64,000 nucleotides of DNA. Source: Octopus vulgaris. Lineage: Eukaryota. The position numbers and the translations under genes are program-made. Shown here piece by piece: positions 1 through 48,660 of this stretch (its first letter is position 1; each line of letters opens with the position of its first letter). Below the pieces are notes generated by a model. The model ran no database searches. It saw only the letters and a program-made list of their open reading frames with translations, and was not told the origin of the DNA. The stretch spans positions 81,406,001-81,470,000 of the forward strand of contig OX597826.1 of the NCBI GenBank assembly GCA_951406725.2, written 5' to 3'.

Positions 1-391
1 TTTGGTGGTGTAGGCTATAGTCTAGTCAACCGGATGATACGTGAAGGAATCATACCCAATGACTGGAGTAGCAGCACCATAGGGTTGGCAACAAGTATAG
101 TGAAGAATTTCTGGTAGGAGTAGGGGTCCACCAAGGATCAGTCCTCCTGGCAATAACAGGGGAATTCAAAACAGGATGCCCCTCTATGCTGTTGATCTTG
201 TTGTAATAGTTGAGTCACTACTAGAACTAGAGGAGAAGTTTCAGGTGTGGAAGCAAAGTGTAGAATTGAAATGCCTTGGAGTCAATCTAGCAAAAACCAA
301 AATCTGAGTAAGTAGAAAGGCAGACAAATCAGAAATCTCTTCAGGTAGATGGCCCTGCTTGATCTGTAGAAAAGGTGTAGGTAGAAACTCT
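1..391 (+). mobile_element. Degenerate, internally deleted RTE-clade LINE RT fragment (PHD family)
   Basis: Translates with frameshifts to GIIPNDWSSSTI, GVHQGSVL, EFKTGCP, LEEKFQVWKQ and GRWPCLICRKGVGRNS, matching the ORF at 2102-4018. Confidence 0.85.
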
Positions 392-1164
392 TCAGAATGC
401 ACTCATATATAAGCTACAGATGCAACCACTACAAAACTCATTGGATATTTTCAACTTGCAGCCAAGTACCGAATCTAACTACCTCGATGTATATTTAGAA
501 ATTAAGTCATGCCTCGCTACACCCTGTCGCCTTGAACACTTTTATCTCTGATGTGCCTACTACTTCATGTGTGATCAAGAAATAAATTGTTGTTGATTAA
601 CAAAAAGGAAAAAACGTTGCCTTCTGATATTTCTCGTTACCTTCATGTAAAACATAACATTTATATATTTCAAACCTTCCGACACGTACACATCTAAATA
701 TAGTTTCTAACGAGGTAATCCCAGGTCTTAATCTTCCTCTTGTTACAGAGTTTTACAGGGATTGAACCCACTACTTCATGGTTGTGGTATATATTATAAA
801 TATATTGTATATATTAGTAACAAACACAGACACAGCATTGTGGCATTGTATAGCGTGGAATACATTAATGAACATTGTACTCCAATCAAGATTGAATGGT
901 ATAACTTGAGGGAAATTTGACAGTTATTTCTAGCAGATCATGCAAGTATGTAGAGGTTCCATTGCTCCTACGTCATTGTTTAGTCCAAGAGAAGCCATGG
1001 TTGACAAGCTCTGCCTATTCAGTGCTGGTCAATCCATAGTTGTTAAGAGAATAACTATGAAACTATCTCCCAGTATAATAATGAGCCTAGTACTTTTATA
1101 TATCTTTGTCCGTTTTTCTGTCTCCATTTTTTTCTCCTTGTTTCTCTCGTTTTTTTCTGTGTCC

Positions 1165-1200
1165 CTTTCTGTAGAAGAGCATAGGCTCGAAACGTAAAAG
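1165..1200 (+). ncRNA. Minimal type-I hammerhead-ribozyme-like motif (Penelope-like element type), with U at core position 6
   Basis: cttt-CTGTAGA-a-gagc(atag)gctc-GAAA-cg-TA-aaag: stem I cttt/aaag, stem II gagc/gctc, minimal palindromic stem III (acgt). The core deviates from CUGANGA at position 6. Confidence 0.55.
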
Positions 1201-1681
1201 ACTTTTTCTATTCCTGAGCATTATACTAATACATCTGTTTGTTTTGTACACCACCTGTCTTCGTCTTTTGTTTTTTTTTTTCGTAAACTCTCCCTATATA
1301 CATATATATATATATATATATATTTAATTTACGAAGGTGTCATAGATTAATCTTTGGTGAATTATTTTTCTCGTAAATTGTATCGAGATTCTTTTACACT
1401 GGTGGCTGCTGTGATTTCGGCGCGAAACGAATCAGTTGCAGCACAGACTTCGGAACAATGGGTTGGGAATCTCTAATTATGGTAATGCGTGCTGAAGAAG
1501 TTAAGGCTTCTTTTGGCAGTGCAGACACGCGTCCACATGAGTCCAGATACTTAAATAGATAGTCTTAACCTGATTTTGCCTTCGTTTTGATTTCTGTAGT
1601 TTTCATCAAAGTATTTTTGGCGATTTAATAAGAGTTTTGACTCTTATTTCAAGCAGGTAGACATACTTAGTATGTCCTTTG

Positions 1682-1690
<9 letters not shown>

Positions 1691-1727
<37 letters not shown>

Positions 1728-1788
1728 TGTATGTATGAATGTATGTATATATATATATATATATATCACCATCATCATCATCATCATT
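1691..1788. repeat. (TA)n/(TATG)n/(CAT)n microsatellite tract; the (CAT)n part is the LINE 3' tail
   Basis: Read directly. Other (TA)n runs at ~1295-1323, 6588-6630, 11969-11997, 12365-12440, 17263-17302 and 22500-22517. Confidence 0.95.
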
Positions 1789-4031
1789 TAGCGTCCATTC
1801 TCCATGCTAGCACGGGTTGGACAGTTCAACCGGGGTCTGGGAAGCCAGAAGGCTGCATCAGGCCAAGTCTGATCTGGCAATGTTTCTACAGCTGGATGCC
1901 CTTCCTAACGCCAACCACTCCGCGAGTGTAGTGGGTGCTTTTTACGTGCCACCGGCCACGTTCGGTTGGTGCTTTTAACGTGCCACCGGCACGGAAGCCA
2001 GTCGATGCGGCACTGTCATCGGCCTCGTTCGGATGGTGCTTTTTATATGCCACCGGCCCAAGTATCACAACTACTATTTCCATTGATATTTATTTCGATG
2101 TTCATGTACTTGACTCAATAGGTTTCCTCAAGCACAGCGGGATGTTCTGGTATCGAAGGTACTTTGAATGGGCAGGGGCTATGCGGGACTGGTGCAGGAA
2201 GCAGCCCGGGCCTTTGCAGCGATCTCGGTCCTTCGTCATTGCCTGTGTGAGGCCGAACGCTCTGAGGTCATGCTTGACTACCTCATCCCATGTCTTCCTG
2301 GGTCTACCTCTCTCCCTGATACCTTCAACTGTTTGGCAGCGGCACTTCTTCACACATCTCTCCTCATCCATCCGCAGTACATGACCATACCATCGCAAGC
2401 GTCGCTCTTGCACACCACATCTGATGCTTCTTATGTCCAGCATTTCTCTCAGGGTGCTTACACTCGGTCGTGCGCGCACACTGACATTACACATCCAGCG
2501 GATCATGCTACCTTCATTTCTTTCAAGCCTACGCATGCCCTCTGCAGTCACAGCCCATGTTTCACTACCGTGAAGCATGGCAGTTTGCACACATGCATCG
2601 TACAATCTGCCTTTCACTCTGAGCGAGAGACCCTTTGTCGCCAGTAGGGGTAGGAGCTTTCTAAACTTTGCCCAGGCTATTCGTATTCTAGTGGTGACAC
2701 TCTCTGAGCATCCCCCTCCACTACTAACTTGGTCACCTAGGTAGTGGAAACTATCTACTACTTCTAGTTTCTCCCCCTGGAGTGTGATGGAATCTGTTTT
2801 CTGAGTATTTGTGGTGTCTATTGTCCCTGTGCATCTGCTGCACATGAAAGCTATCTTATCAGTTAATTTCCCTTTGATGTTGCTGCACCTCTTATGCATC
2901 CATAGCTTACACTGGGTACATCTTATGGAGCTTCTACCTACACCTTTCCTACATATCGAGCAGGGCCACCTGCCCGAGGGTGTGTGTGCTGAGTTCGCCT
3001 TTCTGCTTACTATAACTTTGGTCTTTGCTACATTTACTGTAAGGCCCTTTGATTCTAACCCTTGCTTCCACACCCGAAATTTCTTTTCTAGTTCCGGTAG
3101 TGATTCTGCTATGAGAGCCAGGTCATCAGCATAGAGGAGCTCCCAGGGGCAACCTGTTCTGAATTCCTCTGTTATTGCCTGGAGGACTATGATGAATAAA
3201 AGGGGACTGAGGGCTGAGCTTTGGTGTACACCTACTTCTACCCGGAATTTTTCACTATATTCGTTGCCAATTCTAACCTTGCTGACAGCCTCTCTGTATA
3301 AGGCCTGTACAGCCCTTATTAGCCATTTGTCAATCTCCAGTTTCCGCATCAACCACCAGATAAGGGATCGGTGGACCCTGTCAAAGGCTTTCTCCAAGTC
3401 CACAAAAGCTATGTAGAGGGGTTTATCATTAGCTAGGTACTTCTCCTGCAGTTGTCGGACCAAGAATATAGAATCAGTGGTGCTTCTACCTGGCACAAAT
3501 CCGAACTGCATCTCATCTAAGCAAATTCTCTCCCTAATGAGATGGGTTATAACCCTCTCTGTGACCTTCATCACCTGATCCAACAGTTTAATACCCCTGT
3601 AGTTATTTCTATCTAGAGCATCACCCTTACCCTTGTAGCAGTTGACTATGGTGCTGCTACGCCAGTCATTGGGTATGATTCCAATATGAACTACCTGGTT
3701 TACAATGCGGGTGACTAGGCCATAGCCCACATAACCAACTGTTTTAAGCATCTCAGCGGTGATTCCTGATGGGCCGGGGGCTTTACCTGGTTTCATACCC
3801 TTAATTGCCTTAACTACAAGGGAGCTGTCTATTCGGATAGCTGGTCCCTCTACTGGGTCAACATTTGGCAGGCTCTCCTCCTCCCATTCATTCTCCACAT
3901 TCAGCAGTCTTTCATAATGGCTTCTCCAAGCCTCTTTCTTTTCACCAACATTAAAAGCAAGTGCCCCGTCATCCATGCGGACACATTTCTCTCCTGTAAC
4001 ATCACTATTTTCTCTCACACACTATTTTCTC
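1767..4031 (-). mobile_element. 5'-truncated RTE-clade LINE (RT with embedded PHD-type finger, no endonuclease); open frame 4018-2102, first ATG at 3976
   Basis: RT motifs NYRGIKLL, QFGF.PGRST, FVDLEKAFD, GVHQ, YADD, FHYLG, plus the RTE C-terminal LRWYGHV and GRPRKTW. The 3'UTR ends in (GAT)n. The native C-terminus is deleted, so the ORF runs into the 3'UTR. Confidence 0.95.
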
Positions 4032-4260
4032 CGTCACAACATAGGAATGAGAAAGGAAAGGGTGACAGCTGAATGACAAAGGAAGGGGTGAAAGAGTGTG
4101 TGTGTGTGTGTGCAATGGCCATGTCCATTGTTTAATGCTGTGTAAAAAGTTACCTGTTTCACTAATTATCTCGCAACTTAATTTTTAATTACTTTTTAAT
4201 ATTACCATATTGAACGATTTACGGCAAATTTTGTTTTTCTATTTACGAAAATATTTCTTC

Positions 4261-4365
4261 GGATTCTGTTACTTCCGCCCAGAATCTACCAAAATCATTT
4301 CCAGCCAAGAACTTTCTCTCGTCTGAATCGAATTTATCCAAGAAATTATAAAGCTACGAGGAAAA
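4261..4365 (+). promoter_or_regulatory. Putative core promoter and non-coding exon 1 of ZNF-A (ETS-like ACTTCCG at 4271; donor GTAAGT at 4366)
   Basis: Conserved in inverted orientation upstream of ZNF-C (34261-34390), where surrounding sequence is largely unrelated. Matching acceptor (ttttccttcttatttcag) ends at 6769. Confidence 0.65.
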
Positions 4366-5053
4366 GTAAGTATTTATAGTGTTTAAATGGATATAAAATA
4401 TTTTGAGGACGGATCTTCGGAATAACTCTTTGGGGCAATGAAAAGAGCAAAGAATCGGGAAGGTTTTTTCTTCGTCATTTCAATATTTTACGATTCTCCG
4501 CCAAAATTTCGATCAGAATCAGAATTTCCTTTCTATCAAACACAGAAATACGAGGAAAAAGTGCGCTGGCTTTCGAGATAGCTGTCGCAAATAAAAGGGA
4601 ATTGCTCAGAGATTTCTTTTTTTTAGCATTTTTCACCATTTTATAGAATCTCACTTGGCAAAACAAGATATTAATCGCCTTCTTAAAAAACGAAAAAAGA
4701 AAAGAAATTGAGTATCTTTGCTTCTTTGGAAATGTCTCAGTCTCTCTGTCCCTCTCAGTTACGCCTTCCGAATAACTGCCACGATTCACAGGAATTAATT
4801 TCCTTCCCAATTTCTTCTGAAATATTTACAATTCACATTAGAAATAATACAAAATAACGAAAACTACCAAATGCACCTCACACTTCATCGCACCTTTAAC
4901 GATCTGTAGTCTATACTCGAGTAGAAGCCGATCCCCTATTTTGGGCAAAAACTTGGTAATTTTCCATGGATCCTGTATACAAGTTGACCCTAGTATTTGA
5001 CGAGTAACATTTGTGGGTCCAGATGCAGTATAATCCTGTACGTAGAAGTAACT

Positions 5054-5450
5054 TTTTGTTTCATTTCTACTGTAGGCACAGGGCCCGGAATTTTTTGGGT
5101 GGGTGTCAGTCGATTAGATCGAACAAGTACGCAACTGGTATTTAATTTATCGACCCCGAAAGGATGAGAGGCAAAGTGGACCTCGGCGGAATTTGAACGT
5201 AGGACATAAAGACAGATGAAATGCTTATTTCTTTCCTATCCACAAGGGGCTAAACACAGAGGGGACAAACAAGGACAGACGAACGGATTAAGTCGAGTAT
5301 ATCGACTCCAGTGCGTAACTGGTACATATTTAATCGACCCTGAAAGGATGAAAGGCAAAGTGGACCTCGGCGGAATTTGAACTCAGAACGTAGCGGCAGA
5401 CGAAATAGGGCTAAGCATTTAGTGCTAACGTTTCTGCCAGCTGGCCGTCT
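5054..5450 (-). mobile_element. Dimeric tRNA-derived SINE with ~17-bp TSD
   Basis: Two SINE bodies (gagttcaaattccgccgaggtc...cctttcggggtcgataaattaa). Flanked by tgtacgtagaa(g/a)taact at 5037-5053 and 5451-5467. Duplicate at ~15728-16123. Confidence 0.85.
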
Positions 5451-5562
5451 TGTACGTAGAAATAACTTAGAAAACTATGTATCCTGCTTTTAGGTGGAAT
5501 GCTTGGTGCTTATAATGGAATGTTCAGTGCACCATTTAATAGAGTACACTACACACAAGTGA

Positions 5563-6060
5563 AGGAAAACTGCAAACAAGAGAAATAATATCCTTAAGGT
5601 TATAAACCTGGAAGATTACAGGACAAGTTATTACCCCTAAAAATAGTTGAGGACAGCTTATTACAGAACAGGACAATTTTTACTTAAAATATTGCAGCCA
5701 AGGATAAAATTTCAAATAAAATATTTAGAATTCGAAATTTGCCTACCATATATACTATTCTATTTTGCATAAAACTTTAGCTATATTGATACTTCTGGCT
5801 CTCATTTTTTAAATATTCTAGTGTGTCAGTATTTTAACAAAATAATGATACCTCTTTTAATTATAATGTAAATTAAAATCAAATAATTTTAAATTTTCAA
5901 ATTTTATCCTTAGCTGCAATATTTTAAGTAAATATTTTCTTGCTCTGTATTTTACCAGATGTAATAACCTGTTCTGAACTTTTCCAAGTGAAATAACTTG
6001 TCCTGCAATTTTCCAGGTTTATAATCTTAAGAATATTATTTCTCTTGCTCAAATTTTCCC
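5563..6060. mobile_element. Foldback/MITE-like element with ~160-bp imperfect inverted arms in ZNF-A intron 1
   Basis: 5563-5725 is the reverse complement of 5890-6060 (e.g. caagagaaataatatccttaaggttataaacctgg / ccaggtttataatcttaagaatattatttctcttg). Confidence 0.85.
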
Positions 6061-6586
6061 ATGTAATCCACGTTTTTTCCATGCTGTGCTGTTATGCTAA
6101 TTAATAACGTGTCAATTAGTGGTGTCGTTGATAATTTTTCCTTACCCCAATAACATCGGTGACGTATATTAAAAGTCCCCTTATAGGACTATATTCATAG
6201 AAAGTATAGAACTATACTATCACCCTCAAATTGCAGAAACAAACACTCATTACCTTTTTCTTTTAAAACTTCATTGCATGAGATTGATACCTTGAAGCTC
6301 CTTGAATCGATCTCTATCAATTAAGCCTAATTAAAATATAGTCTGTTTATAAAATTTAATAGTTAATTATACTATAGTGTTGCGATAAGTTTTGATGTAA
6401 ACTTTTTTCTTCTGGATCAAATCTCAATGATTTTTATGCCAAGATGTAGCTAGGGACCAGCCCTCTTCAAAAATGTTAACAGTTTTCAATTCAGTTAAGA
6501 ACCGAATTAGCGACAAGCTCTGAAAAATGCTGCATGGGAGCAAACTGTGGCCTTCCCAATATTATTCAATTACTACTGTAGTTGAA

Positions 6587-6625
<39 letters not shown>

Positions 6626-7170
6626 TATATGCACAGTATTATAGAGATACGCTGGAGGAGTTCATTCGTTCTAGTCAAGGTTTCACTTGTACAATTTATA
6701 AGTATAGCAATAACATTGATGCTGTTTATGTATCCTTGAAAGCTTATACTGTTTTCCTTCTTATTTCAGAATCAAAGCTGGAACTGGCATCAACATTTTT
6801 GTTTATCATACAACAGAAGCATCAACAATATTTATCATCTTTTAAAGACAAAAAATGTTATCCTGAACAAATATGACCATTTTCACATAAATTTAATGAA
6901 TGATGTTTGAAAGATTTCCCCTGGGTAAGATTATTAGCAACAGTTGTGTGTGTCATTCCCTGGAATGAGTACAATACAATTCTGCATTGAAAATATATGA
7001 AGATCGATTTATGAAGCACTTTGCATCCAGATAATGGACTTGTAGCAGAAGGAATGTTTGTTAGAAATAAATTATAGAAAGGAAAACAGCAAACATAATA
7101 TATTGTGGTGAGAGAAGGAAGAATTATTATTCAATGAAATAAACAACTGTTATTTTTTGGTTCTTAAAAG

Positions 7171-8370
7171 ATGGCAAAAAGCTTAGCAAAGTCTTCATAT
7201 GAATGTGATGTCTGTAAAAAGTCATTAAGTTCAAGAGGTACACTAACTGCTCATGTACGTATTCATACAGGAGAGAAACCATATCACTGTGTTATCTGTG
7301 GTAAAAGATTCACTAGAACAGATGACTTGACTGTTCATGTACGTGCTCATACAGGAGAGAAACCATATCAGTGTGATATCTGTGGTCAGTCGTTCACTCG
7401 TACAGATATTTTAACCACACACAAACGTATTCACACAGGAGAGAAACCATATCAATGTGATATGTGCAGTAAATCATTCGCTAAAAGTACCAACTTAACT
7501 GATCACAAACGCATTCATACTGGAGAAAGACCATACCATTGTGATATCTGCGGTAAATCATTCAATCAAAATAACCAGTTAGTTAAACACAAACGCATTC
7601 ATACAGGAGAAAAGCCTTATCAATGTGATACCTGTGACAAAGCATTCTCTCGTAATGCTGAGTTAATTGCTCACAAATACATTCATACAGGAGAAAACCC
7701 TTATCAATGTGATATCTGTGGTAAATCATTCCGTCAAAATAACAAGTTAATTAAACACAAACGTATTCATACTGGAGAAAAACGATTTCATTGTGATGTT
7801 TGTGGTAAAGCATTCTCTCAGAGTACGGATGTGAAAATGCACAAACGTATTCATACCAGAGAAAAACAATATCACTGTGATATCTGTGGTAAATCATTCA
7901 TTCGAAGTAAAGATTTAGAGGTCCATAAGCACATTCATTCTGGAGAAAAACCATATGATTGTGATATCTGTGGTAAATCGTACGCACAAAGTAGTGCCTT
8001 AAATTCTCATAAACACATCCATACTGGAGAGGCACCATATCAGTGTAATATCTGCGGTAAATCATTCCCTACAAATAATTCCCTGAGTGGTCATAAACGT
8101 ATTCATACTGGGGAAACACCGTATCATTGTGATATCTGTGGTAAATCTTTCTCTCAAAGTACTGCTGTAACTGTACATAAACGTATTCATACAGGAGAGA
8201 AGCCATATTATTGTGATATCTGTGGTAAATCTTTCTCTCGAAGTACTGCTGTAACTGTACATAAACGTATTCATACAGGAGAGAAGCCCTATCACTGTGA
8301 TATCTGTGGTAAATCATTCAATCGAAATAGCCACGTAACTAGACACAAACGTATTCATACAGGAGAATAG
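7171..8370 (+). CDS. ZNF-A: poly-C2H2 zinc-finger protein, 399 aa, 14 fingers, no effector domain; ends at a TAG inside a TGEKP linker
   Basis: 14 repeats of C-x2-C-x12-H-x3-H with TGEKP-type linkers after a 9-aa leader (MAKSLAKSS). Confidence 0.93.
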   Translation: MAKSLAKSSYECDVCKKSLSSRGTLTAHVRIHTGEKPYHCVICGKRFTRTDDLTVHVRAHTGEKPYQCDICGQSFTRTDILTTHKRIHTGEKPYQCDMCSKSFAKSTNLTDHKRIHTGERPYHCDICGKSFNQNNQLVKHKRIHTGEKPYQCDTCDKAFSRNAELIAHKYIHTGENPYQCDICGKSFRQNNKLIKHKRIHTGEKRFHCDVCGKAFSQSTDVKMHKRIHTREKQYHCDICGKSFIRSKDLEVHKHIHSGEKPYDCDICGKSYAQSSALNSHKHIHTGEAPYQCNICGKSFPTNNSLSGHKRIHTGETPYHCDICGKSFSQSTAVTVHKRIHTGEKPYYCDICGKSFSRSTAVTVHKRIHTGEKPYHCDICGKSFNRNSHVTRHKRIHTGE

Positions 8371-10046: not shown

Positions 10047-11064
10047 TGTGTGTTCCCAGAAGAAGACCAGCATGGAAAAGAAGGGTCTGGAAGCTGAAGG
10101 ATCTTGTGAATGAACAAAGATTTAGAGATGTATTAAAGTTTTTGATAAAAAAGAGGAGGATATACCATCACAATGTGCAAGACAACTGGAGGTTCCTATG
10201 AGGCGACCTGTTGAGGGCTGTTGACCAGATCTGTGGATGGTGCAAAGTCTGCTCTCAACCTAAGGTAACACAGTGGCAGAACAATGTAGTTGACAGGGTT
10301 ATTAGGGAAAAGAAACAAGCATGGTGGCAGGGAACTGTATCAGATTGCTGGAAGGGGAGCTAGGTGACCACCAATGTTGTGTGTCATGAGGACCAGAGAC
10401 TTGAAGTGTTTCGTGTTGCCAGACTGTGTGAAAGAGAATTGTGATTTCATAGGAGAGAAATGTGTCTGCATAGATGATGGTTCACTTGCATTTAATGATG
10501 CTGTGAAGAGAGGGACTTGGAGACTATGAAAGGTTGCTAAATGAAGAAATATCAAGCCAACAGAGGGAGCAGCTATTCAAATTGACAGTACTTTGATAGA
10601 TAAAGCAATTAAGGGTCTGAAGACAAGGAAAATCCCCAACCCACCAGCAGTCACTGCAGAGATGCTTAAACTATTTGGTGGTGTAGGCTATAGTCTAGTC
10701 AACCGGATGATACGTGAAGGAATCATACCCAATGACTGGAGTAGCAGCACCATAGGGTTGGCAACAAGTATAGTGAAGAATTTCTGGTAGGAGTAGGGGT
10801 CCACCAAGGATCAGTCCTCCTGGCAATAACAGGGGAATTCAAAACAGGATGCCCCTCTATGCTGTTGATCTTGTTGTAATAGTTGAGTCACTACTAGAAC
10901 TAGAGGAGAAGTTTCAGGTGTGGAAGCAAAGTGTAGAATTGAAATGCCTTGGAGTCAATCTAGCAAAAACCAAAATCTGAGTAAGTAGAAAGGCAGACAA
11001 ATCAGAAATCTCTTCAGGTAGATGGCCCTGCTTGATCTGTAGAAAAGGTGTAGGTAGAAACTCT
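10047..11064 (+). mobile_element. Degenerate RTE-clade LINE fragment at the duplication junction
   Basis: PRRRPAWKRRVWKLKD, ENCDFIGEKCVCIDDG, AEMLKLFGGVGY and GRWPCLICRK, with stops and frameshifts. Its 3' part is identical to 1-391. Confidence 0.85.
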
Positions 11065-11838
11065 TCAGAATGCACTCATATATAAGCTACAGATGCAACC
11101 ACTACAAAACTCATTGGATATTTTCAACTTGCAGCCAAGTACCGAATCTAACTACCTCGATGTATATTTAGAAATTAAGTCATGCCTCGCTACACCCTGT
11201 CGCCTTGAACACTTTTATCTCTGATGTGCCTACTACTTCATGTGTGATCAAGAAATAAATTGTTGTTGATTAACAAAAAGGAAAAAACGTTGCCTTCTGA
11301 TATTTCTCGTTACCTTCATGTAAAACATAACATTTATATATTTCAAACCTTCCGACACGTACACATCTAAATATAGTTTCTAACGAGGTAATCCCAGGTC
11401 TTAATCTTCCTCTTGTTATAGAGTTTTACAGGGATTGAACCCACTACTTCATGGTTGTGGTATATATTATAAATATATTGTATATATTAGTAACAAACAC
11501 AGACACAGCATTGTGGCATTGTATAGCGTGGAATACATTAATGAACATTGTACTCCAATCAAGATTGAATGGTATAACTTGAGGGAAATTTGACAGTTAT
11601 TTCTAGCAGATCATGCAAGTATGTAGAGGTTCCATTGCTCCTACGTCATTGTTTAGTCCAAGAGAAGCCATGGTTGACAAGCTCTGCCTATTCAGTGCTG
11701 GTCAATCCATAGTTGTTAAGAGAATAACTATGAAACTATCTCCCAGTATAATAATGAGCCTAGTACTTTTATATATCTTTGTCCGTTTTTCTGTCTCCAT
11801 TTTTTTTCTCCTTGTTTCTCTCGTTTTTTTCTGTGTCC

Positions 11839-11874
11839 CTTTCTGTAGAAGAGCATAGGCTCGAAACGTAAAAG
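11839..11874 (+). ncRNA. Duplicate copy of the hammerhead-like motif
   Basis: Identical to 1165-1200. Confidence 0.55.
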
Positions 11875-12355
11875 ACTTTTTCTATTCCTGAGCATTATAC
11901 TAATACATCTGTTTGTTTTGTACACCACCTGTCTTCGTCTTTTGTTTTTTTTTTTCGTAAACTCTCCCTATATACATATATATATATATATATATATTTA
12001 ATTTACGAAGGTGTCATAGATTAATCTTTGGTGAATTATTTTTCTCGTAAATTGTATCGAGATTCTTTTACACTGGTGGCTGCTGTGATTTCGGCGCGAA
12101 ACGAATCAGTTGCAGCACAGACTTCGGAACAATGGGTTGGGAATCTCTAATTATGGTAATGCGTGCTGAAGAAGTTAAGGCTTCTTTTGGCAGTGCAGAC
12201 ACGCGTCCACATGAGTCCAGATACTTAAATAGATAGTCTTAACCTGATTTTGCCTTCGTTTTGATTTCTGTAGTTTTCATCAAAGTATTTTTGGCGATTT
12301 AATAAGAGTTTTGACTCTTATTTCAAGCAGGTAGACATACTTAGTATGTCCTTTG

Positions 12356-12401
<46 letters not shown>

Positions 12402-12440
12402 TGTATGTATGAATGTATGTATATATATATATATATATAT

Positions 12441-14705
12441 CACCATCATCATCATCATCATTTAGCGTCCATTCTCCATGCTAGCACGGGTTGGACAGTT
12501 CAACCGGGGTCTGGGAAGCCAGAAGGCTGCATCAGGCCAAGTCTGATCTGGCAATGTTTCTACAGCTGGATGCCCTTCCTAACGCCAACCACTCCGCGAG
12601 TGTAGTGGGTGCTTTTTACGTGCCACCGGCCACGTTCGGTTGGTGCTTTTAACGTGCCACCGGCACGGAAGCCAGTCGATGCGGCACTGTCATCGGCCTC
12701 GTTCGGATGCTGCTTTTTATATGCCACCGGCCCAAGTATCACAACTACTATTTCCATTGATATTTATTTCGATGTTCATCTACTTGACTCAATAGGTTTC
12801 CTCAAGCACAGCGGGATGTTCTGGTATCGAAGGTACTTTGAATGGGCAGGGGCTATGCGGGACTGGTGCAGGAAGCAGCCCGGGCCTTTGCAGCGATCTC
12901 GGTCCTTCGTCATTGCCTGTGTGAGGCCGAACGCTCTGAGGTCATGCTTGACTACCTCATCCCATGTCTTCCTGGGTCTACCTCTCTCCCTGATACCTTC
13001 AACTGTTTGGCAGCGGCACTTCTTCACACATCTCTCCTCATCCATCCGCAGTACATGACCATACCATCGCAAGCGTCGCTCTTGCACACCACATCTGATG
13101 CTTCTTATGTCCAGCATTTCTCTCAGGGTGCTTACACTCGGTCGTGCGCGCACACTGACATTACACATCCAGCGGATCATGCTACCTTCATTTCTTTCAA
13201 GCCTACGCATGCCCTCTGCAGTCACAGCCCATGTTTCACTACCGTGAAGCATGGCAGTTTGCACACATGCATCGTACAATCTGCCTTTCACTCTGAGCGA
13301 GAGACCCTTTGTCGCCAGTAGGGGTAGGAGCTTTCTAAACTTTGCCCAGGCTATTCGTATTCTAGTGGTGACACTCTCTGAGCATCCCCCTCCACTACTA
13401 ACTTGGTCACCTAGGTAGCGGAAACTATCTACTACTTCTAGTTTTTTCCCCTGGAGTGTGATGGAATCTGTTTTCTGAGCATTTGTGGTGTCTATTGTCC
13501 CTGTGCATCTGCTGCACATGAAAGCTATCTTATCAGTTAATTTCCCTTTGATGTTGCTGCACCTCTTATGCGTCCATAGCTTACACTGGGTACATCTTAT
13601 GGAGTTTCTACCTACACCTTTCCTACATATCGAGCAGGGCCACCTGCCCGAGGGTGTGTGTGCTGAGTTCGCCTTTCTGCTTACTATAACTTTGGTCTTT
13701 GCTACATTTACTGTAAGGCCCTTTGATTCTAACCCTTGCTTCCACACCCGAAATTTCTTTTCTAGTTCCGGTAGTGATTCTGCTATGAGAGCCAGGTCAT
13801 CAGCATAGAGGAGCTCCCAGGGGCAACCTGTTTTGAATTCCTCTGTTATTGCCTGGAGGACTATGATGAATAAAAGGGGACTGAGGGCTGAGCCTTGGTG
13901 TACACCTACTTCTACCCGGAATTTTTCACTATATTCGTTGCCAATTCTAACCTTGCTGACAGCCTCTCTGTATAAGGCCTGTACAGCCCTTATTAGCCAT
14001 TTGTCAATCTCCAGTTTCCGCATCAACCACCAGATAAGGGATCGGTGGACCCTGTCAAAGGCTTTCTCCAAGTCCACAAAAGCTATGTAGAGGGGTTTAT
14101 CTTTAGCTAGGTACTTCTCCTGCAGTTGTCGGACCAAGAATATAGAATCAGTGGTGCTTCTACCTGGCACAAACCCGAACTGCATCTCATCTAAGCAAAT
14201 TCTCTCCCTAATGAGATGGGTTATGACCCTCTCTGTGACCTTCATCACCTGATCCAACAGTTTAATACCCCTGTAGTTATTTCTATCTAGAGCATCACCC
14301 TTACCCTTGTAGCAGTTGACTATGGTGCTGCTACGCCAGTCATTGGGTATGATTCCAATATGAACTACCTGGTTTACAATGCGGGTGACTAGGCCATAGC
14401 CCACATAACCAACTGTTTTAAGCATCTCAGCGGTGATTCCTGATGGGCCGGGGGCTTTACCTGGTTTCATACCCTTAATTGCCTTAACTACAAGGGAGCT
14501 GTCTATTCGGATAGCTGGTCCCTCTACTGGGTCAACATTTGGCAGGCTCTCCTCCTCCCATTCATTCTCCACATTCAGCAGTCTTTCATAATGGCTTCTC
14601 CAAGCCTCTTTCTTTTCACCAACATTAAAAGCAAGTGCCCCGTCATCCATGCGGACACATTTCTCTCCTGTAACATCACTATTTTCTCTCACACACTATT
14701 TTCTC
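12441..14705 (-). mobile_element. Duplicate 5'-truncated RTE-PHD LINE; open frame 14692-12776
   Basis: Same boundaries as 1767-4031; 9 amino-acid differences in 638. Confidence 0.95.
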
Positions 14706-14934
14706 CGTCACAACATAGGAATGAGAAAGGAAAGGGTGACAGCTGAATGACAAAGGAAGGGGTGAAAGAGTGTGTGTGTGTGTGTGCAATGGCCATGTCC
14801 ATTGTTTAATGCTGTGTAAAAAGTTACCTGTTTCACTAATTATCTCGCAACTTAATTTTTAATTACTTTTTAATATTACCATATTGAACGATTTACGGCA
14901 AATTTTGTTTTTCTATTTACGAAAATATTTCTTC

Positions 14935-15039
14935 GGATTCTGTTACTTCCGCCCAGAATCTACCAAAATCATTTCCAGCCAAGAACTTTCTCTCGTCTGA
15001 ATCGAATTTATCCAAGAAATTATAAAGCTACGAGGAAAA
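14935..15039 (+). promoter_or_regulatory. Putative core promoter and non-coding exon 1 of ZNF-B (donor at 15040, acceptor ends 17441)
   Basis: Identical to 4261-4365. Confidence 0.65.
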
Positions 15040-16235
15040 GTAAGTATTTATAGTGTTTAAATGGATATAAAATATTTTGAGGACGGATCTTCGGAATAAC
15101 TCTTTGGGGCAATGAAAAGAGCAAAGAATCGGGAAGGTTTTTGTCTTCGTCATTTCAATATTTTACGATTCTCCGCCAAAATTTCGATCAGAATCAGAAT
15201 TTCCTTTCTATCAAACACAGAAATACGAGGAAAAAGTGCGCTGGCTTTCGAGATAGCTGTCGCAAATAAAAGGGAATTGCTCAGAGATTTCTTTTTTTTA
15301 GCATTTTTCACCATTTTATAGAATCTCATTTGGCAAAACAAGATATTAATCGCCTTCTTAAAAAACGAAAAAAGAAAAGAAATTGAGTATCTTTGCTTCT
15401 TTGGAAATGTCTCAGTCTCTCTGTCCCTCTCAGTTACGCCTTCCGAATAACTGCCACGATTCACAGGAATTAATTTCCTTCCCAATTTCTTCTGAAATAT
15501 TTACAATTCACATTAGAAATAATACAAAATAACGAAAACTACCAAATGCACCTCACACTTCATCGCACCTTTAACGATCTGTAGTCTATACTCGAGTAGA
15601 AGCCGATCCCCTATTTTGGGCAAAAACTTGGTAATTTTCCATGGATCCTGTATACAAGTTGACCCTAGTATTTGACGAGTAACATTTGTGGGTCCAGATG
15701 CAGTATAATCCTGTACGTAGAAGTAACTTTTTGTTTCATTTCTACTGTAGGCACAGGGCCCAATTTTTTGGGTGGGTGTCAGTCAATTAGATCGAACAAG
15801 TACGCAACTGGTATTTAATTTATCGACCCCGAAAGGATGAGAGGCAAAGTGGACCTCGGCGGAATTTGAACGTAGGACATAAAGACAGATGAAATGCTTA
15901 TTTCTTTCCTATCCACAAGGGGCTAAACACAGAGGGGACAAACAAGGACAGACGAACGGATTAAGTCGAGTATATCGACTCCAGTGCGTAACTGGTACAT
16001 ATTTAATCGACCCTGAAAGGATGAAAGGCAAAGTGGACCTCGGCGGAATTTGAACTCAGAACGTAGCGGCAGACGAAATAGGGCTAAGCATTTAGTGCTA
16101 ACGTTTCTGCCAGCTGGCCGTCTTGTACGTAGAAATAACTTAGAAAACTATGTATCCTGCTTTTAGGTGGAATGCTTGGTGCTTATAATGGAATGTTCAG
16201 TGCACCATTTAATAGAGTACACTACACACAAGTGA

Positions 16236-16733
16236 AGGAAAACTGCAAACAAGAGAAATAATATCCTTAAGGTTATAAACCTGGAAGATTACAGGACAAG
16301 TTATTACCCCTAAAAATAGTTGAGGACAGCTTATTACAGAACAGGACAATTTTTACTTAAAATATTGCAGCCAAGGATAAAATTTCAAATAAAATATTTA
16401 GAATTCGAAATTTGCCTACCATATATACTATTCTATTTTGCATAAAACTTTAGCTATATTGATACTTCTGGCTCTCATTTTTTAAATATTCTAGTGTGTC
16501 AGTATTTTAACAAAATAATGATACCTCTTTTAATTATAATGTAAATTAAAATCAAATAATTTTAAATTTTCAAATTTTATCCTTAGCTGCAATATTTTAA
16601 GTAAATATTTTCTTGCTCTGTATTTTACCAGATGTAATAACCTGTTCTGAACTTTTCCAAGTGAAATAACTTGTCCTGCAATTTTCCAGGTTTATAATCT
16701 TAAGAATATTATTTCTCTTGCTCAAATTTTCCC
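16236..16733. mobile_element. Duplicate foldback/MITE-like element in ZNF-B intron 1
   Basis: Matches 5563-6060. Confidence 0.85.
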
Positions 16734-17260
16734 ATGTAATCCACGTTTTTTCCATGCTGTGCTGTTATGCTAATTAATAACGTGTCAATTAGTGGTGTCG
16801 TTGATAATTTTTCCTTACCCCAATAACATCGGTGACGTATATTAAAAGTCCCCTTATAGGACTATATTCATAGAAAGTATAGAACTATACTATCACCCTC
16901 AAATTGCAGAAACAAACACTCATTACCTTTTTCTTTTAAAACTTCATTGCATGAGATTGATACCTTGGAAGCTCCTTGAATCGATCTCTATCAATTAAGC
17001 CTAATTAAAATATAGTCTGTTTATAAAATTTAATAGTTAATTATACTATAGTGTTGCGATAAGTTTTGATGTAAACTTTTTTCTACTGGATCAAATCTCA
17101 ATGATTTTTATGCCAAGATGTAGCTAGGGACCAGCCCTCTTCAAAAATGGTAACAGTTTTCAATTCAGTTAAGAACCGAATTAGCGACAAGCTCTGAAAA
17201 ATGCTGCATGGGAGCAAACTGTGGCCTTCCCAATATTATTCAATTACTACTGTAGTTGAA

Positions 17261-17297
<37 letters not shown>

Positions 17298-17832
17298 TAT
17301 ATGCACAGTATTATAGAGATACGCTGGAGGAGTTCATTCGTTCTAGTCAAGGTTTCACTTGTACAATTTATAAGTATAGCAATAACATTGATGCTGTTTA
17401 TGTATCCTTGAAAGCTTATACTGTTTTCCTTCTTATTTCAGAATCAAAGCTGGAACTGGCATCAACATTTTTGTTTATCATACAACAGAAGCATCAACAA
17501 TATTTATCATCTTTTAAAGACAAAAAATGTTATCCTGAACAAATATGACCATTTTCACATAAATTTAATGAATGATGTTTGAAAGATTTCCCCTGGGTAA
17601 GATTATTAGCAACAGTTGTGTGTGTCATGAGTACAATACAATTCTGCATTGAAAATATATGAAGATCAATTTATGAAGCACTTTGCATCCAGATGATGGA
17701 CTTGTAGCAGAAGGAATGTTTGTTAGAAATAAATTATAGAAAGGAAAACAGCAAACATAATATATTGTGGTGAGAGAAGGAAGAATTATTATTCAATGAA
17801 ATAAACAACTGTTATTTCTTGGTTCTAAAAAG

Positions 17833-19026
17833 ATGGCAAAAAGCTTAGCAAAGTCTTCTTACGAATGTGATGTCTGTAAAAAGTCATTAACTTCAAGAAG
17901 TAATTTAACTGCTCATATCCGTATTCATACAGGAGAGAAACCATTTCACTGTGATTTCTGCGGAAAAAGGTTTACTAGAAAAGGTGAGTTGCCTGTTCAT
18001 GTACGGGTTCATACGGGAGAGAAACCATATCAGTGTGATATCTGTGGACAATCATTCACTCGTAAAGATATTTTAACTACACACAGACGTATTCACACAG
18101 GAGAGAAACCATATCAGTGTGATATGTGCAGTAAATCATTCGCTAAAAGTACCAACTTAACTGATCACAAACGCATTCATACTGGAGAAAAACCATATCA
18201 TTGTGATATCTGCGGTAAATCATTCAATCAAAATAATCAGTTAATTAAACACATACGAATTCATACAGGAGAAAAACCCTATCACTGTGATATCTGTGAC
18301 AAATCTTTCTCTCGAAATGATGAGTTAACTACACACAAACTTAGTCATACAGGTGAGAAACCTTACAGGTGTGATATCTGTGGTAAATCATTCCCTGTAA
18401 ATAATGCCTTGACTGTACACAAACGTATTCATACCGGAGAAAAACGATTTATTTGTGATATTTGTGGTAAAGCTTTTCTTAAAAGTCGTGATTTAGAGGA
18501 TCATAAAAGCATTCATACTGGAGGAAAACTATATCGTTGTGATATTTGTGGTAAAGCATTTACACATAGGCCTGCTGTAAATGTACATAAACGCATTCAT
18601 ACAAGAGAAAAACCGTATCATTGTGATATCTGTGGTACATCCTTCTCTCAGCGTACTGCTGTAACTGTCCATAAACGTGTTCATACTGGAGAAAAGCCAT
18701 ATCACTGTGATATCTGTGGTAAATCATTTATTCAGAGTAACGATTTAAAGGGACATATACGTATTCATACTGGAGAAAAACCATATCAGTGTGATATCTG
18801 TGGTAAATCTTTCTCTCAAAGTACTGCTGTAACTGTACATAAACGTGTTCATACCAGAGAAACACCATATCATTGTGATATCTGTGGTAAATCATTCTCT
18901 TACAGTAACCTATTAACTAAGCACAAATGTATTCATATGGCAGAAAATTCATATCGGTGTAATGTCTGTGGTGAGTCCTTCTCTCAACAGGAGGATTTAG
19001 CCAATCATGTCTGTGTTATTCCATGA
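17833..19026 (+). CDS. ZNF-B: poly-C2H2 zinc-finger protein, 397 aa, 13 canonical fingers plus 1 degenerate finger
   Basis: Intact ORF of tandem C2H2 fingers with TGEKP linkers and the same leader as ZNF-A. Confidence 0.95.
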   Translation: MAKSLAKSSYECDVCKKSLTSRSNLTAHIRIHTGEKPFHCDFCGKRFTRKGELPVHVRVHTGEKPYQCDICGQSFTRKDILTTHRRIHTGEKPYQCDMCSKSFAKSTNLTDHKRIHTGEKPYHCDICGKSFNQNNQLIKHIRIHTGEKPYHCDICDKSFSRNDELTTHKLSHTGEKPYRCDICGKSFPVNNALTVHKRIHTGEKRFICDICGKAFLKSRDLEDHKSIHTGGKLYRCDICGKAFTHRPAVNVHKRIHTREKPYHCDICGTSFSQRTAVTVHKRVHTGEKPYHCDICGKSFIQSNDLKGHIRIHTGEKPYQCDICGKSFSQSTAVTVHKRVHTRETPYHCDICGKSFSYSNLLTKHKCIHMAENSYRCNVCGESFSQQEDLANHVCVIP

Positions 19027-23419: not shown

Positions 23420-25120
23420 TGTGAAAAGCACCCAGCACCAGAGTGGTTGGGATTAGGAAGGGCATTGTCATCGTTGTTTAACATCCACTTCCCATTCTGG
23501 CATGGGTTGGACTGTTTGACTGGGGACTGGCGAGCCAGAAGGCTACAATCCAATCTGGCAGTGTTTCTACAGCTGGATGCCCTTCCTAATGCCAACCGCT
23601 CCGAGCATGTAGTGGGTGCTTTTTATGTGCCACCGGCACAAGAGCTAGTCAGTTGACACTGGTATCGACCATGCTGGAAACTATACCAAAAGCAGACAAA
23701 TGGAAACTGGTGCAGCTCTCCAGCCATGCCATCTCCTGCTAAACTGTTCAACCCATGACAGCGTGGAAAACAGATGTTAAATGATGATGGTGATTGTTAT
23801 CCTCCCCACCTCTTTTTGGGGAGGAAAAAAATGAACTTTATTTCTTTGGCAGAATCAATTATTGTGCAATCCTTTTGCATTCATATTTTTCTACCAAATG
23901 TTTTGCTTATTTATTCAGATTTTCTATAATTGGTCTTGAATTATCTCAAAGCTTCCAGATTTCAATGCTGTGATTGTTTATTTTTCTGAATGACATTGTT
24001 GGACAGGTGCAAGCGGTCAGATCTGGCCAGTTTGAACATAAAACAGGCAGAATATTTGAACTGGCCGGAGGATTAAGGGGACATTCGTATTTGACAAACG
24101 CTAAAGCTAATCCATTCTACTCTAGGCACAAGGCGTGGAATTTTGGGGAAGTGGGGGTAAATCGATGACATCGATCCCAGTTATTTATTTCATGAAACCC
24201 CAGAAGGACGAAAGGCAAAGTTGACCTTGGTGGCATTTGAACACAGAACACAAAGATGGACAAAACGCCGCTAAGCTTTATGTCCAGCATGCAAATGATT
24301 CTGTCAGTTTGCTGCCTTATAAAAGCTGAAGATAATGGAAACGGATTTTCTTTTCCTTTTTATTGCTAATTTTTCAAAGCCAATAGAATGGTATTCACTT
24401 GATCAACCAAACTCTCTGATGTTGTTATACCTCACTGGTCACAATGTGCTTTGCATTGTTTTTTAGCTTTTGAATGATGCCAACCCAACTGGGTGGGGCG
24501 AACAGGTCAGCATTCTCCCTGGTCAGAAGGCTACTCTGTCGTAGAGTTACCCATTTACAGCCGAGTGGAGAAGCCCATTGTATGGCTCCCGTGCTAGTGG
24601 TACGTAAAATGCATCATTCAAGCATAGTCAATGCGGAGTGGTTGGCATTAGGAAGGGCATCCAGCTGTAGAAACAATGCCAGATCAAGATTGGAGCCTGG
24701 TTTTCCAGACCTCAGTCAAATCGTCCAACCCATGCCAGCATGGAAAGCAGACGTTAAATGACAACAATGATGATGATGATGATGAGGATGGTTGGTAAAA
24801 TCCCAAAAGCATTTGACAAAATGTTTTGAAGCTTTAGTTCTGGTTCTTCTTGTTCATCATCATCATCATCATCATCATTGTTTAATGTCCACTTTCCATG
24901 CTGCCATGGGTTGGATGGTTTGACTGGGGACTGTCAAGCCAGGAGGCTGCACCAGACTCCCAATCTAATCTGGCAAGGTTTCTACAGTTGGATGCCCTTC
25001 ATAATGCCAACCACTCCAAGAGTGTAGTAGGTGCTTTTTCATGTGCCACCAGCAGGGGAGCCAGTCAGGTGGCACTGGCATCAGCCACAACAACGATTTC
25101 ACTTGACTCAACAGGTCTTC
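23420..25120. mobile_element. Cluster of short RTE-PHD 3'-UTR copies in both orientations (23420-23790 nested; 24590-24790 +; 24855-25120 -)
   Basis: Shared motif ctacagctggatgcccttcctaatgccaaccactc with (GAT)n tails. Further copies at ~20820-20980, 41930-42120, 43920-44215, 48660-48900 and 54610-54745. Confidence 0.8.
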
Positions 25121-25972: not shown

Positions 25973-27887
25973 TCATCATCATCATCATCGTTTAACGTCT
26001 GCTTTCCATGCTAGCATGGGTTGGACGATTTTGACTGAGGTCTGGCGAACCAGATGGCTGCACCAAACTCCAGTCTGATCTGGCAGAGTTTCTACAGCTG
26101 GATGCCCTTCCTAATGCCAACCACTCCGAGAGTATAGTAGGTGCTTTTACGTGCCACCGGCACGAGGGACAGTCAGGCGGTACTGGCAACGCCCACGCTT
26201 AAATGGTGCTTTTTATGTGCCATCGGCATGGGACCAGCACTGGTATCAACTATGCTCAAATGGTTGATACCAGTGGCACTGGCAACAACCTCGCTCGAAT
26301 GTTTTTTCATGTGCCACCAGCACAGGTGCTAGTAAGGTGACAAAGGTAACGATCATGGTGCTTTTAACGTGCCATCGGCACAAAGGCCAGCTTGTTGCTC
26401 TGGCAACGATCTCACTCGTGTGGTACTCTTAGCGCTCCAGTACCAATGGATGCCAGTCACCGAGTTTGATTTCGATTTCACTTGCCTCAACTGGTCTTTG
26501 CAAGCAGAGTTTAGTGTCCAATAAAGGAAAGGCACGCATAAGTGGACTGGTTACACCCCTAGCATAGGCCACAAGGTTATGGTCACACTTGCGCTTGCCA
26601 AGTCTTCTCAAGCACAGCATATTTCCAGAGGTCCCAGTCACTAGTCATTGCCTCGGTGAGGCCCAATGTTTGAAGGTCATGCTTCACCACCTCTTCACTA
26701 CCTCTTCCACAGGTTCCCTCAACTGCTAGTGTGTGGCACTTTTTCACACAGCTATCCACATCCTTTCTCACCACATGACCATACCAGCGCAGTCGTCTCT
26801 CTTGCACACCACAACTGATGCTTCTTAGGTCCAATCCATTACACATCCATCGGAGCATGCTGGCTCATTCCTTGCAAGCTTACGCATGTCCTCAGCAGTC
26901 ACGGCCCATGTTTCACTGCCATGTAGCATGGCTGTTCGTACACATGCGTCATACAGTCTACCTTTTACTCTGAGCGAGAGGCCCTTTGTCTCCAGCAGAG
27001 GTAAGAACTCTCTGAACTTAGCCCAGGCTATTCTTATTCTAGCAGTTACACTTTCAGTGCACCCTCCCCTGCTACTGACTTGGTCACCTAGGTAGCGGAA
27101 GCTATCGACTACTTCTATTTTTTCTCCCTGGAATGTGGTAGAAGTTGGTCTCTGCACATTTCCAGTGTTTATTGCTCCTGAGCATCTGCCACATACAAAA
27201 ATTATCCTCACAGTTAGCCTTCCTTTGATATTGCTGCACCTCTTATGTGTCCATAGCTTACACTGGGTACATCTTATAGAGTTTCTACCTACGCCTTTTC
27301 TACAGATCGTGCAGGGCCATCTACCTGAAGGGATTTGTGGTTTGCCTGCCTTCCTACTTATTAGGACATTGGTTTTAGCTAGGTTGACTCTAAGGCCCTT
27401 CGATTCTAATCCTTGTTTCCATACTTGAAACTTCTCTAGTTCTGAGAGTGACTCAGCAATTAGAGCAAGGTCATCAGCATAGAGGAGCTCCCAAGGGCAT
27501 CCTGTCTTGAATTCCTCTGTTATTGCCTGGAGGACTATGATAAATAGGAGGGGGCTGAGGACTGCACCTTGGTGGACCCCTACCTCTACCCAGAATTCTT
27601 CACTGTACTCGTTGCCAACTCTCACCTTACTAGCAGCATCCCTGTACATGGCTTGCACGGCTCTCACTAACCATTCATCTATCCCTAGTTTCCTCACTGA
27701 CCACCAGATAAGGGATCAGGGGACCCTGTCGAAGGCTTTCTCCATGTCAACGAAAGCCAGGTACAGGGGCTTATCTTTGGCTAGGTATTTCTCCTGCAGC
27801 TGTCTTACCAGGAATATAGCATCAGTGGTGCTTTTCCCTGGCATGAAACCAAACTGCATCTCATCCAAACTGACTCTCTCCCTAATA
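25973..27887 (-). mobile_element. 5'-truncated, frameshifted RTE-PHD LINE
   Basis: GVHQG, YADD, GRWPCTICRK...CTQCKLWTHKRC...FVCGRC, FRYLG and LRWYGHV motifs; 3'UTR with tandem units; (GAT)n tail. Confidence 0.93.
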
Positions 27888-36392: not shown

Positions 36393-37965
36393 TTCCACGT
36401 GTTTTCTCTGCTGCCATACCGTCTAGCAGGTCTCATGCTGTCCACTGCCAACTAACAGCTCGCACCTCACCAACCCTGCATGCCCATCTTGGCCCTTCCA
36501 GTGGGACCCGCAGGCCCCACTTCTGACAGGACATGCATACTCCCTCACTTCCGGTCTTTTCTTCCAACACAGCCTGGCTCATGACACACCCCGCCCCACC
36601 TGATCTGAAGATCATTCAACCAGCCTGCCCACATCCTCTCCTCAACCCTGACTACACACCTTAACTTGTCTCATAATCAGCCAACCAGTGAGGAGAGCAC
36701 TGCTCCCTCTGCGACTGCCGTGGGACTTCAGGACTGGCCTCAGTCCCTGGCATGTCACTGTTGGCTTCATCCTCTTGTCCATTACTGTTGGTTGCATCCT
36801 CCGATGCATTGATGATTCTGCGCACATCTAAAACATGACGTGGCATGCCATCTACAGAACACATTGTTCCTCAAATTTACAGAGGTTATTGTCCCCTTTC
36901 CTCGTTGTGATGTGCTCTGTGCATTTGAGGGTTTAACCCACACTTCTTCCCCAACCTGCACAAAGGCATTCTCTTTCTCTTCTGCGGGTTGCATTGATGC
37001 AGTACATGAATGTCTCCACTTGTACTTGAATATTACCCTGTGTGACACTGACTCCCCAGTCTGTCCTGACCTGGGCAACATATTATACCAAAAAATGGCA
37101 TCGACTGGCGAGATGTAGCCTCTCTCTGCCATGGTATTGATGGTGTGATGCTGCCTCTCCACAACCCCGTTGCCACTTGGCTGGTATGCCACCCTGAAGA
37201 AATGACTAGCATGCTGCTTGTCGAGCATTTCCTCCAGCACCTCCAAATGAAGCAGCTTCTCCACGGGGCCTCGTTCTAGGAATATCTCATTTAGTATTCT
37301 TGTGATTTCCTACACGCACCCCGTCTTCGTTTCCCGCCCTATAGCCAACCGCTCCAGTCTGCAGTTGACCATTGAGAGGCATTCCCCTGCCGGTAATGCG
37401 TCCACTGCCAGTTATTTCCAGTTGTGATCTGCTGGAATGCTTCCTGCCTCGTGCACACCTGGAGCAGGGGTTGATGAACTGGCACCTGTCGCAGCTCCCA
37501 ACTACTCTCTGCACACTCTGCCTGGTCGCGTCAGGGTCAACTTTCCTGGCTCAGAATATGGTCCTGTCCACCCCCATGTGATGCATGGTATGCAGTCTCT
37601 TCAGCTCCGAATCACGCTGTCGACACACTACAGCCACTCCTTGCTCCAGCACCTGCAACCAGGCTTCCTTTACTCTGGTTAGGATATCCGCTCTATACTT
37701 CTCAGAGGGCACAAAAACCACACTCAGCCTCAGGTCAAATTCGACAGCTAGCTCACCCAGAATTCCCAAGCGGCATCTTATCAGCATATCTGTGCTCCCT
37801 TTGGTTTGTACCCTCTGCTCACAAGTGACCACTGATCCCACCCATCTAAGTACAGTGGCTGAATCGGTCCAGATCTCGATGGTACACTGCCCCTACCTCA
37901 GGGCCAGGTTCACCCCCTTCAGCACAGTATCGAGCTCTGCCACGTTGATGTTGTTGACAACGATC
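36393..37965 (-). mobile_element. Ty3/Gypsy pol relic (RNase H, integrase zinc finger, integrase core)
   Basis: DSATVL.WV, VVFVPSEKYRADILTR, LHTMHHMGVDRT...VVGSCDRC (HHCC) and AYQPSGNGVVERQH, across several frames. Confidence 0.85.
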
Positions 37966-43655: not shown

Positions 43656-44295
43656 GTAAGTTCTACCTATTGATTTATTCTTATTTTACTTTGAATTTGT
43701 TTCATTTGATAATTTTTTTTTTTGCAATAGTTCCCCAAGGTATTGCTTAATGGTTTGGCACCTGAAGCCATGTAACGACATGGTTTTGGTGTCCATCCGA
43801 CTGTGGCACTTTGGCATGTGTCTTCATCTTATAGCCTTGCACCGATCACTGTACTTTGAGTGAAATTAGTAGAGAAAATCTGGGTAGAAGCCTATCGTGT
43901 GTGTGTGTATGTATGTACATTATCATCATCATCATTTAATGTCCGTTTTCCATGCTAGCATGGGTTGGATGGTTCGACCGGGGTCTGGAAGCCATGGAGG
44001 CTGCACCAGGCTCTAGTCTGGTTTGGCAGTGTTTCTACAGCTTGATGCCCTTCCTAACGCCAACCACTCCATGAGTGTAGTGGGTGTCTTTTATGTGCCA
44101 CTGGCACAGTGGCCAGAGCAGGCTGGTAAATGGCCATGATCAGTTGGTGCTTTTATGTGTCACCGACACGGACACCAGTTAGGCGGCGCTGGCATCTGCC
44201 ACATTCGGACGGTACATACATATGTATATGCACATACACACACACATACATTCACAGACGCACACACACACACACAGTCATTTAACATGTCTTTC

Positions 44296-48627: not shown

Positions 48628-48660
<33 letters not shown>

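Follow-up and report, generated by a model that had tools for sequence, protein, structure and literature searches.

A selected PHD finger between motifs 6 and 7 of the reverse transcriptase of an RTE-type LINE in Octopus vulgaris

PHD fingers in LINEs of the CR1/L2 type were reportedly described by Kapitonov and Jurka in 2003. There the finger belongs either to ORF1 or to the N-terminus of ORF2, ahead of the endonuclease, and is often shuffled, and ORF2 has been called highly constrained (Metcalfe and Casane 2014, PMC4120745). The finger which we describe here is likewise LINE-borne, and the CR1/L2 fingers, too, best match Pygopus (2vpb, 3zpv) and have been proposed to aid genome targeting (PMC4120745); in contrast to them, the octopus finger lies inside the reverse transcriptase (RT) of an RTE-type element and appears to be fixed in its lineage. 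A PHD finger inserted in the RT domain of a retroelement has a precedent in the Penelope-like elements of Chlamys (Craig et al. 2021, PMC8557442), which, however, belong to another class and have the finger located between RT2a and RT3 or inside the endonuclease, in five algal families. The preliminary description of this DNA, according to which LINE fingers are best known from ORF1 of CR1/L2-type elements and not from inside the RT, missed this precedent.

The element R2 has an insertion at the same place, between RT motifs 6 and 7 and starting just past the motif 6 strand. In R2Bm this 6a loop contacts and reads the target DNA on the upstream side, nicking is blocked when the loop is deleted, and the loop is predicted to be unique to R2 (Wilkinson et al. 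2023, PMC10499050; Thawani et al., PMC11601368). In the text of PMC7617806 we found nothing on the region. Yet 6a is a short basic loop that reads DNA sequence, whereas the octopus insert is a domain of 60 residues with two zinc sites, carried by an APE-type element. The coincidence of the two sites does not appear in the preliminary description. Chromatin-reading domains on the integration protein of a retrotransposon are also known from chromovirus chromodomains and from CopiaMBD (de Mendoza et al. 2019, PMC6673714); these are LTR elements for which chromodomain targeting and MBD binding were shown experimentally, whereas the octopus finger is known from sequence and models.

In the literature searched we found no description of a PHD finger inside the RT of an RTE element; an earlier mention is possible in Repbase/Dfam or in subscription papers, which lie outside this search. 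The pairing of RVT_1 with PHD is already present in automatic annotation. The consulted text of PMC3849965, PMC9115989, PMC11203168 and PMC10294476 does not mention a PHD domain (their supplements could hold RTE sequences of the lineage), and for the published octopus element RTE-2_OV a C2H2 finger is described there, with no mention of PHD (PMC9115989).

The window, that is the whole 64-kb stretch of octopus DNA analysed here, contains the following features:

1766–4023, minus strand: RTE-type LINE copy (subfamily A) holding the finger, 5′-truncated and without the endonuclease half (alignment to the longer copies L031/L032/L037 from 4023 down)
2102–4021, minus strand: 639-codon open reading frame with RT, PHD insert, motif 7 and thumb (ORF listing, Pfam, copy alignment)
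3122–3133, minus strand: YADD catalytic motif, RT motif 5 (sequence)
3014–3034, minus strand: RT motif 6 strand NVAKTKV, aligned with R2Bm residues ending at 669, before the 6a loop (672–677)
2795–3001, minus strand: complete insert including both variable linkers, 69 codons, compared with about 8 codons in the PHD-less 46.6 kb family
2831–2968, minus strand: PHD finger core W352–C397, with the zinc ligands at 2831–2962
2966–2968, 2939–2941, 2927–2929 and 2900–2902, minus strand: pocket positions W352, V361, S365 and W374 (alignment to Pygopus)
2735–2767, minus strand: RT motif 7 LEVVDSFHYLG, weakly aligned with R2Bm 694–715
1766–1787, minus strand: (ATG)n 3′ tail, adjoining an (AT)n microsatellite (sequence)
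13505–13636, minus strand: finger in the segmental duplicate, ORF 12776–14695 (pattern scan)
27182–27313, minus strand: finger of an independent subfamily copy, ORF 26825–27715, 77% protein identity, all ligands kept (pattern scan, Pfam)
58885–59020, plus strand: decayed finger of a broken copy, C1 and C3 lost and a stop present
350–406, plus strand: finger frameshifted past the third Cys, duplicated near 11023–11079 (pattern scan)
46550–47800, plus strand: old PHD-less RTE family used for comparison, running from motif 6 to motif 7 without insert
49768–52934, plus strand: young, intact RTE family that lacks the PHD finger and likewise ends in an (ATG)n tail; it served as control for the insertion sites (Pfam, copy search)

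The final ~40 codons of the 2102–4021 frame deviate from the full-length copies. The finger at 13505 is not an independent copy, because it lies inside an 8.3 kb local duplication in which both RTE copies are 99.4% identical: positions 1–8319 and 10674–18981, together with 10 kb upstream (L039), form tandem units of about 10.7 kb, each consisting of a C2H2 zinc-finger gene and an RTE copy, and there are at least three such units, the third just upstream of the window. Short matches to the 3′ end only of the finger-bearing family occur at 23468–23648, 24856–25088, 41933–42119, 43918–44213 and 48650–48900 and may be either extreme truncations or a partner SINE. The pieces at 36782–37309, 45685–46263 and 62694–63212, all on the minus strand, we take to be fragments of, respectively, an integrase-like sequence, a CR1/L2-like thumb and another APE domain.

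The insert is confirmed as a C4HC3 PHD finger between RT motifs 6 and 7. A six-frame pattern scan found the exact spacing C-x2-C-x10-C-x2-C-x4-H-x2-C-x14-C-x2-C at 2831–2962, 13505–13636 and 27182–27313, always on the minus strand, preceded by NVAKTKV/NLAKTNV and followed by LEVVDSF.YLG, with W two residues before the His and F two residues ahead of the final Cys pair, so that the ligand pattern proposed in the preliminary description, its preservation in the duplicate and in the independent copy, its decay near 59 kb and its absence from the 46.6 and 49.8 kb families all hold. The damage to the finger near 350–390 is likewise real and consists of a frameshift after the third Cys. The finger of the 2831 copy has a private N-to-S change. 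On the isolated insert the Pfam PHD profile scores 30.2 bits (E 4.6e-7, over the 24-bit cut-off), ahead of C1_2 with 26.2 bits and RING with 12 bits; within the whole ORF of the 2831 copy it reaches 22.8 bits and within whole subfamily ORFs 20.6–22.8 bits, under the cut-off, while the whole ORFs of the database proteins P0200 and P0397 lie above it. Pfam gave no PHD match in the 49.8 kb RTE ORF. Identity as a C1, RING or FYVE domain was rejected on lower profile scores and lower fold ranks, and chance or artefact on the ligand conservation in homologues and on purifying selection.

Longer copies elsewhere in the genome have single frames of 1037–1051 codons with APE endonuclease, RT and PHD. 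In the 1045–1051-codon frames Pfam matched Exo_endo_phos, RVT_1 and PHD and nothing beyond these three, neither a C-terminal CCHC nor an RNase H, and no ORF1-like frame was seen in the 5′ region of the single copy examined (L115). The (ATG)n tail is present at 29 of 33 family loci, the other four having no 3′ end. By architecture and tail the element classes as an RTE-type LINE, the label resting on this architecture and on motifs known from the clade. A genome search with a 123-residue region returned 27,004 first-look candidates, a figure which is not a copy number, and the 150 that were scored are 91–100% identical. Among the sampled copies there are three finger-bearing groups: subfamily A, subfamily Y, which has 78% protein identity to A and includes many copies that are about 99% identical to one another, and an older family of broken copies in which Asp or Gly precedes the first Cys. 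Older broken copies with the Asp-type finger (L061, L063, L071, L072, L084–L113) have 69–81% protein identity to their query in the top 30. In a young PHD-bearing subfamily (L114–L133), with many copies ~99% alike and 1051-codon frames, tandem repeats of ~340 bp and ~63 bp bring the distance from finger to tail to 1.4–3.3 kb, and the 5′ region contains units of ~650 bp in duplicate. The PHD-less RTE at 49768–52934 (plus strand) has its 3′ end matched by at least 39 other copies with 99–100% identity and was likely active recently.

In a database search with the whole ORF as query 7992 proteins were scored and 2494 of them found to match; the best 120 of those 2494 (47–73% identity) all keep the eight ligands. 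Because this query contained the finger, a second search was made with only the RT residues of the divergent P0200: of its 120 matches 106 have full fingers, 10 are visibly broken, three end before the finger and one was unparsed, and a clean PHD-less passage from motif 6 to motif 7 occurs in none of them. Among 50% representatives there were 2198 matches at E 0.001; the full pattern is present in 86 of the 149 inspected, and the remainder, uncounted, we read as mostly fragments or decayed copies. That such inserts might be widespread had been surmised before and is borne out. The few named matches come from a catfish, two lancelets, a bacterial bin from a bivalve and a fluke, the fluke protein ending before the finger. 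The protein in the bin (P0108), an RTE protein filed under a bacterial symbiont, is likely host DNA. Another database protein (P0156) has two tandem copies of the finger. Longer fused forms (1120–3195 aa) were not found among 339 candidates, which argues only weakly against them.

In a FastTree phylogeny of the RT columns before the insert, built from 60 of the 149 aromatic-type and 35 of the 69 Asp-type proteins together with those genome copies that had at least 200 filled positions (L140 and L141 were removed as misaligned or chimeric), 99 PHD-bearing rows split from seven PHD-less rows with a branch support of 99. A single gain of the finger is the simple reading of this tree, its outgroup being thin, as the seven rows come from only two families of the octopus genome. 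In a comparison of 22 A with 20 Y copies the 46 codons of the finger have a dN/dS of 0.14, RT residues 100–340 one of 0.08, the part following the insert one of 0.09 and the linkers one of 0.68; the codon bootstrap (95%, 10 by 10 copies) gives 0.05–0.36 for the finger, 0.06–0.13 for the RT and 0.21–2.09 for the linkers. These copies were picked by similarity in the finger region with the first five ligands required, which hides some recent damage, and between Y and the 27 kb copy the finger value is weaker, 0.42 on few changes. The ligands are unchanged across about 50% RT divergence, while no linker column reaches 90%. The finger is, as judged from these sequences, conserved throughout the lineage and, between the two subfamilies, under purifying selection.

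The AF2 model of the RT (121 sequences) has a pLDDT of 90 overall and of 87–94 over the finger, and its best Foldseek matches are L1 ORF2p and R2 with overall TM 0.64–0.70. The zinc-free model of the finger alone (pLDDT 71) is predicted to adopt a PHD fold, with Pygopus leading in both Foldseek and VIA; PHD-containing chains make up the top 50 VIA rows and all Foldseek rows except the last, at middling scores (VIA Z at most 6.0, rmsd 2.3 over 51; best Foldseek E 0.016). In the alignment of the family profile with R2Bm, the motif 6 strand ends at residue 669, and 694–715 correspond, weakly, to motif 7. As 6a (672–677) falls between these aligned motifs, the finger occupies the 6a segment of R2Bm. 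By analogy the loop with the finger would face the target DNA as in R2; the path of the target DNA may be a different one in APE-type LINEs.

Pygopus is the best PHD match of the octopus finger both by family profile and by fold. Its cavity for K4me2 is formed by W366, Y341 and D352 with V350 and A356 at the base, of which V350, A356 and W366 are required for H3K4me binding, and its binding face is acidic (Fiedler et al. 2008, PMC2726290). In the alignment W352, V361, S365 and W374 of the 2831 copy correspond to Y341, V350, A356 and W366, whereas D352 falls into a two-residue gap and E360 is replaced by Thr; in the aromatic subtype four of the five Pygopus pocket positions are thus matched and D352 is absent. 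Unlike Pygopus, the octopus finger also has a loop that is shorter by two residues, a short loop 2, a basic surface and no known BCL9-like partner. Among the 224 of 240 pooled homologues with the full pattern, the pocket has V in 210, S/A in 219 and W in 222, with the preceding N in 216, and at the position of Y341 an aromatic residue or His in 149, Asp in 69 and others in six. The only non-ligand columns reaching 85% are P, V, N, S and W. An acid at the position of E360 occurs in 9/224, and the net charge is positive in all 224. As the aligned stretch of PHF13 is also net positive, a basic PHD finger can, in that instance, read H3K4me.

The preliminary description had noted that W-x-H contributes to the aromatic cage in PHD fingers that read H3K4me3. 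Readers of the BPTF/ING type were defined by a cage of 2–4 aromatic residues, M/Y at C3−3 and an acidic R2 pocket; here C3−3 is S/A in 219/224, and an acid is present at C3+1 in 9/224 and at C3+2 in 7/224. H3K4me0 readers of the AIRE/BHC80 type, defined by an acidic cluster before the first Cys without an aromatic cage, are approached by a lone Asp at C1−2 in 69/224, with the W at H−2 kept, and the 2831 copy with its W at C1−2 falls outside this type. By its residues (aromatic or Asp, V, S/A, W) the pocket is semi-aromatic and resembles that of Pygopus, not a full cage of the BPTF/ING type. In host PHD fingers an aromatic residue before the first Cys goes with K4me3 readers and an acidic one with K4me0 readers (PMC3241642), and in the RT tree the Asp-type fingers form at least two separate groups.

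Given these features, a role as histone reader is plausible. We suggest, at about even confidence, that the selected finger in the 6–7 loop tethers the integrating protein to the chromatin of the target site: grafted into this loop in a whole lineage of single-ORF RTE-type elements, it would take the tail of histone H3 at K4 in its predicted Pygopus-like pocket and contact DNA with its basic surface. H3 would then be the ligand, and the tethering would affect the choice of insertion site or the efficiency of insertion. As RTE-type elements have a single ORF, the RT protein itself would be the only place for an accessory reader of the sort found in ORF1 of CR1/L2 elements.

A possible but clearly less probable explanation is that the finger binds nucleic acid only, as an enlarged, folded counterpart of 6a which grips the target DNA, perhaps AT-rich repeats, or the RNA of the element, and has no histone role. 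The shared site with a DNA-reading loop, the positive charge of all 224 fingers and the conserved H-K-[KR] fit this idea, and DNA-binding PHD fingers exist (PMC6222470; BAZ1A, Hop1). Those of PMC6222470 are, however, atypical C3HC2H fingers without the histone residues, whereas the octopus finger is canonical and keeps them, and its most conserved non-ligand residues are those of the pocket, not the basic ones. Also in favour of nucleic-acid binding, 3′ junctions run into (AT)n in 15 of 29 PHD-family copies and in 4 of 30 copies of the young PHD-less RTE (Fisher p 0.002; background 2%), a comparison of one PHD lineage with one distant family under a scoring rule adjusted after viewing the sequences. 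Endonuclease preference or tail pairing would explain the contrast equally well, and since endonuclease and tail repeats have already been linked to site choice in RTE elements (PMC6007223), the preference for (AT)n is not assignable to the finger. Calls of target-site duplications are unreliable inside microsatellites. The unrelated insertions L032 and L120, and also L038 and L116, have the same other repeat just past the tail, which suggests that several elements stack at the same microsatellite sites. No excess of GC or CpG was seen in 27 flanks of young PHD-family copies relative to 30 control flanks (GC 0.36 against 0.39, CpG ratio 0.44 against 0.51), so that in this small sample targeting to promoters finds no support.

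We consider it rather unlikely that the finger is a protein-interaction or structural module, whether by packing against the RT or endonuclease, by oligomerising the protein in the absence of an ORF1, or by binding a host factor other than a histone, as Pygo binds BCL9. Asp at the first pocket position pairs with Arg at C2+3 in 62/69 fingers and an aromatic residue with Gly in 147/149, a covariation that agrees with such a module and could also be plain compensatory packing; the Pygo PHD needs its partner for full binding, and the pLDDT is higher within the RT model than for the finger alone, a gap that may, however, stem from differing alignments. A mutual-information search for contacts between finger and RT in 240 homologues gave a signal dominated by shared ancestry, with only W352–G360, a pair within the finger, matching direct counts. 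Against this explanation, the nearly freely evolving linkers fit a domain that is hung flexibly, and the RTs of PHD-less RTE elements work without a finger, as the young family illustrates. A role outside integration, as a chromatin sensor or counter-silencing decoy directed at host readers or at the loci of the element itself, has been suggested for other retrotransposon reader domains (PMC6673714) and seems highly improbable here, as none of our results points that way and a DNA-facing loop of the catalytic domain would fit integration better. That the finger is a tolerated passenger without function, in a loop that accepts insertions as R2 shows, is largely refuted by its low dN/dS, its invariant ligands and the lack of clean losses.

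If the tethering reading is extended to the two pocket types, a large animal RTE clade would carry an epigenetic reader in its polymerase, at the target-facing 6–7 loop, and repeated switching between methyl-K4 (aromatic) and unmethylated-K4 (Asp) recognition would steer insertion to different chromatin. We put this forward as a tentative and rather doubtful proposal; were it true, theirs would be the first non-LTR RT to include a sensor of histone marks that can be retuned, and the loop would be a natural site for grafting retargeting modules. The proposal that LINEs use PHD fingers for targeting is two decades old, and in the literature surveyed we found no test of it. Here the finger belongs to the catalytic protein of single-ORF elements that have young copies, its pocket occurs in two natural types, and the same genome offers a young PHD-less RTE as control, so that a domain of 60 residues would allow a direct test. 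The 6–7 loop, reported as a DNA reader of R2 only, can hold an entire folded domain; this matters for how non-LTR RTs may contact chromatin and for where gene insertion tools could accept grafts.
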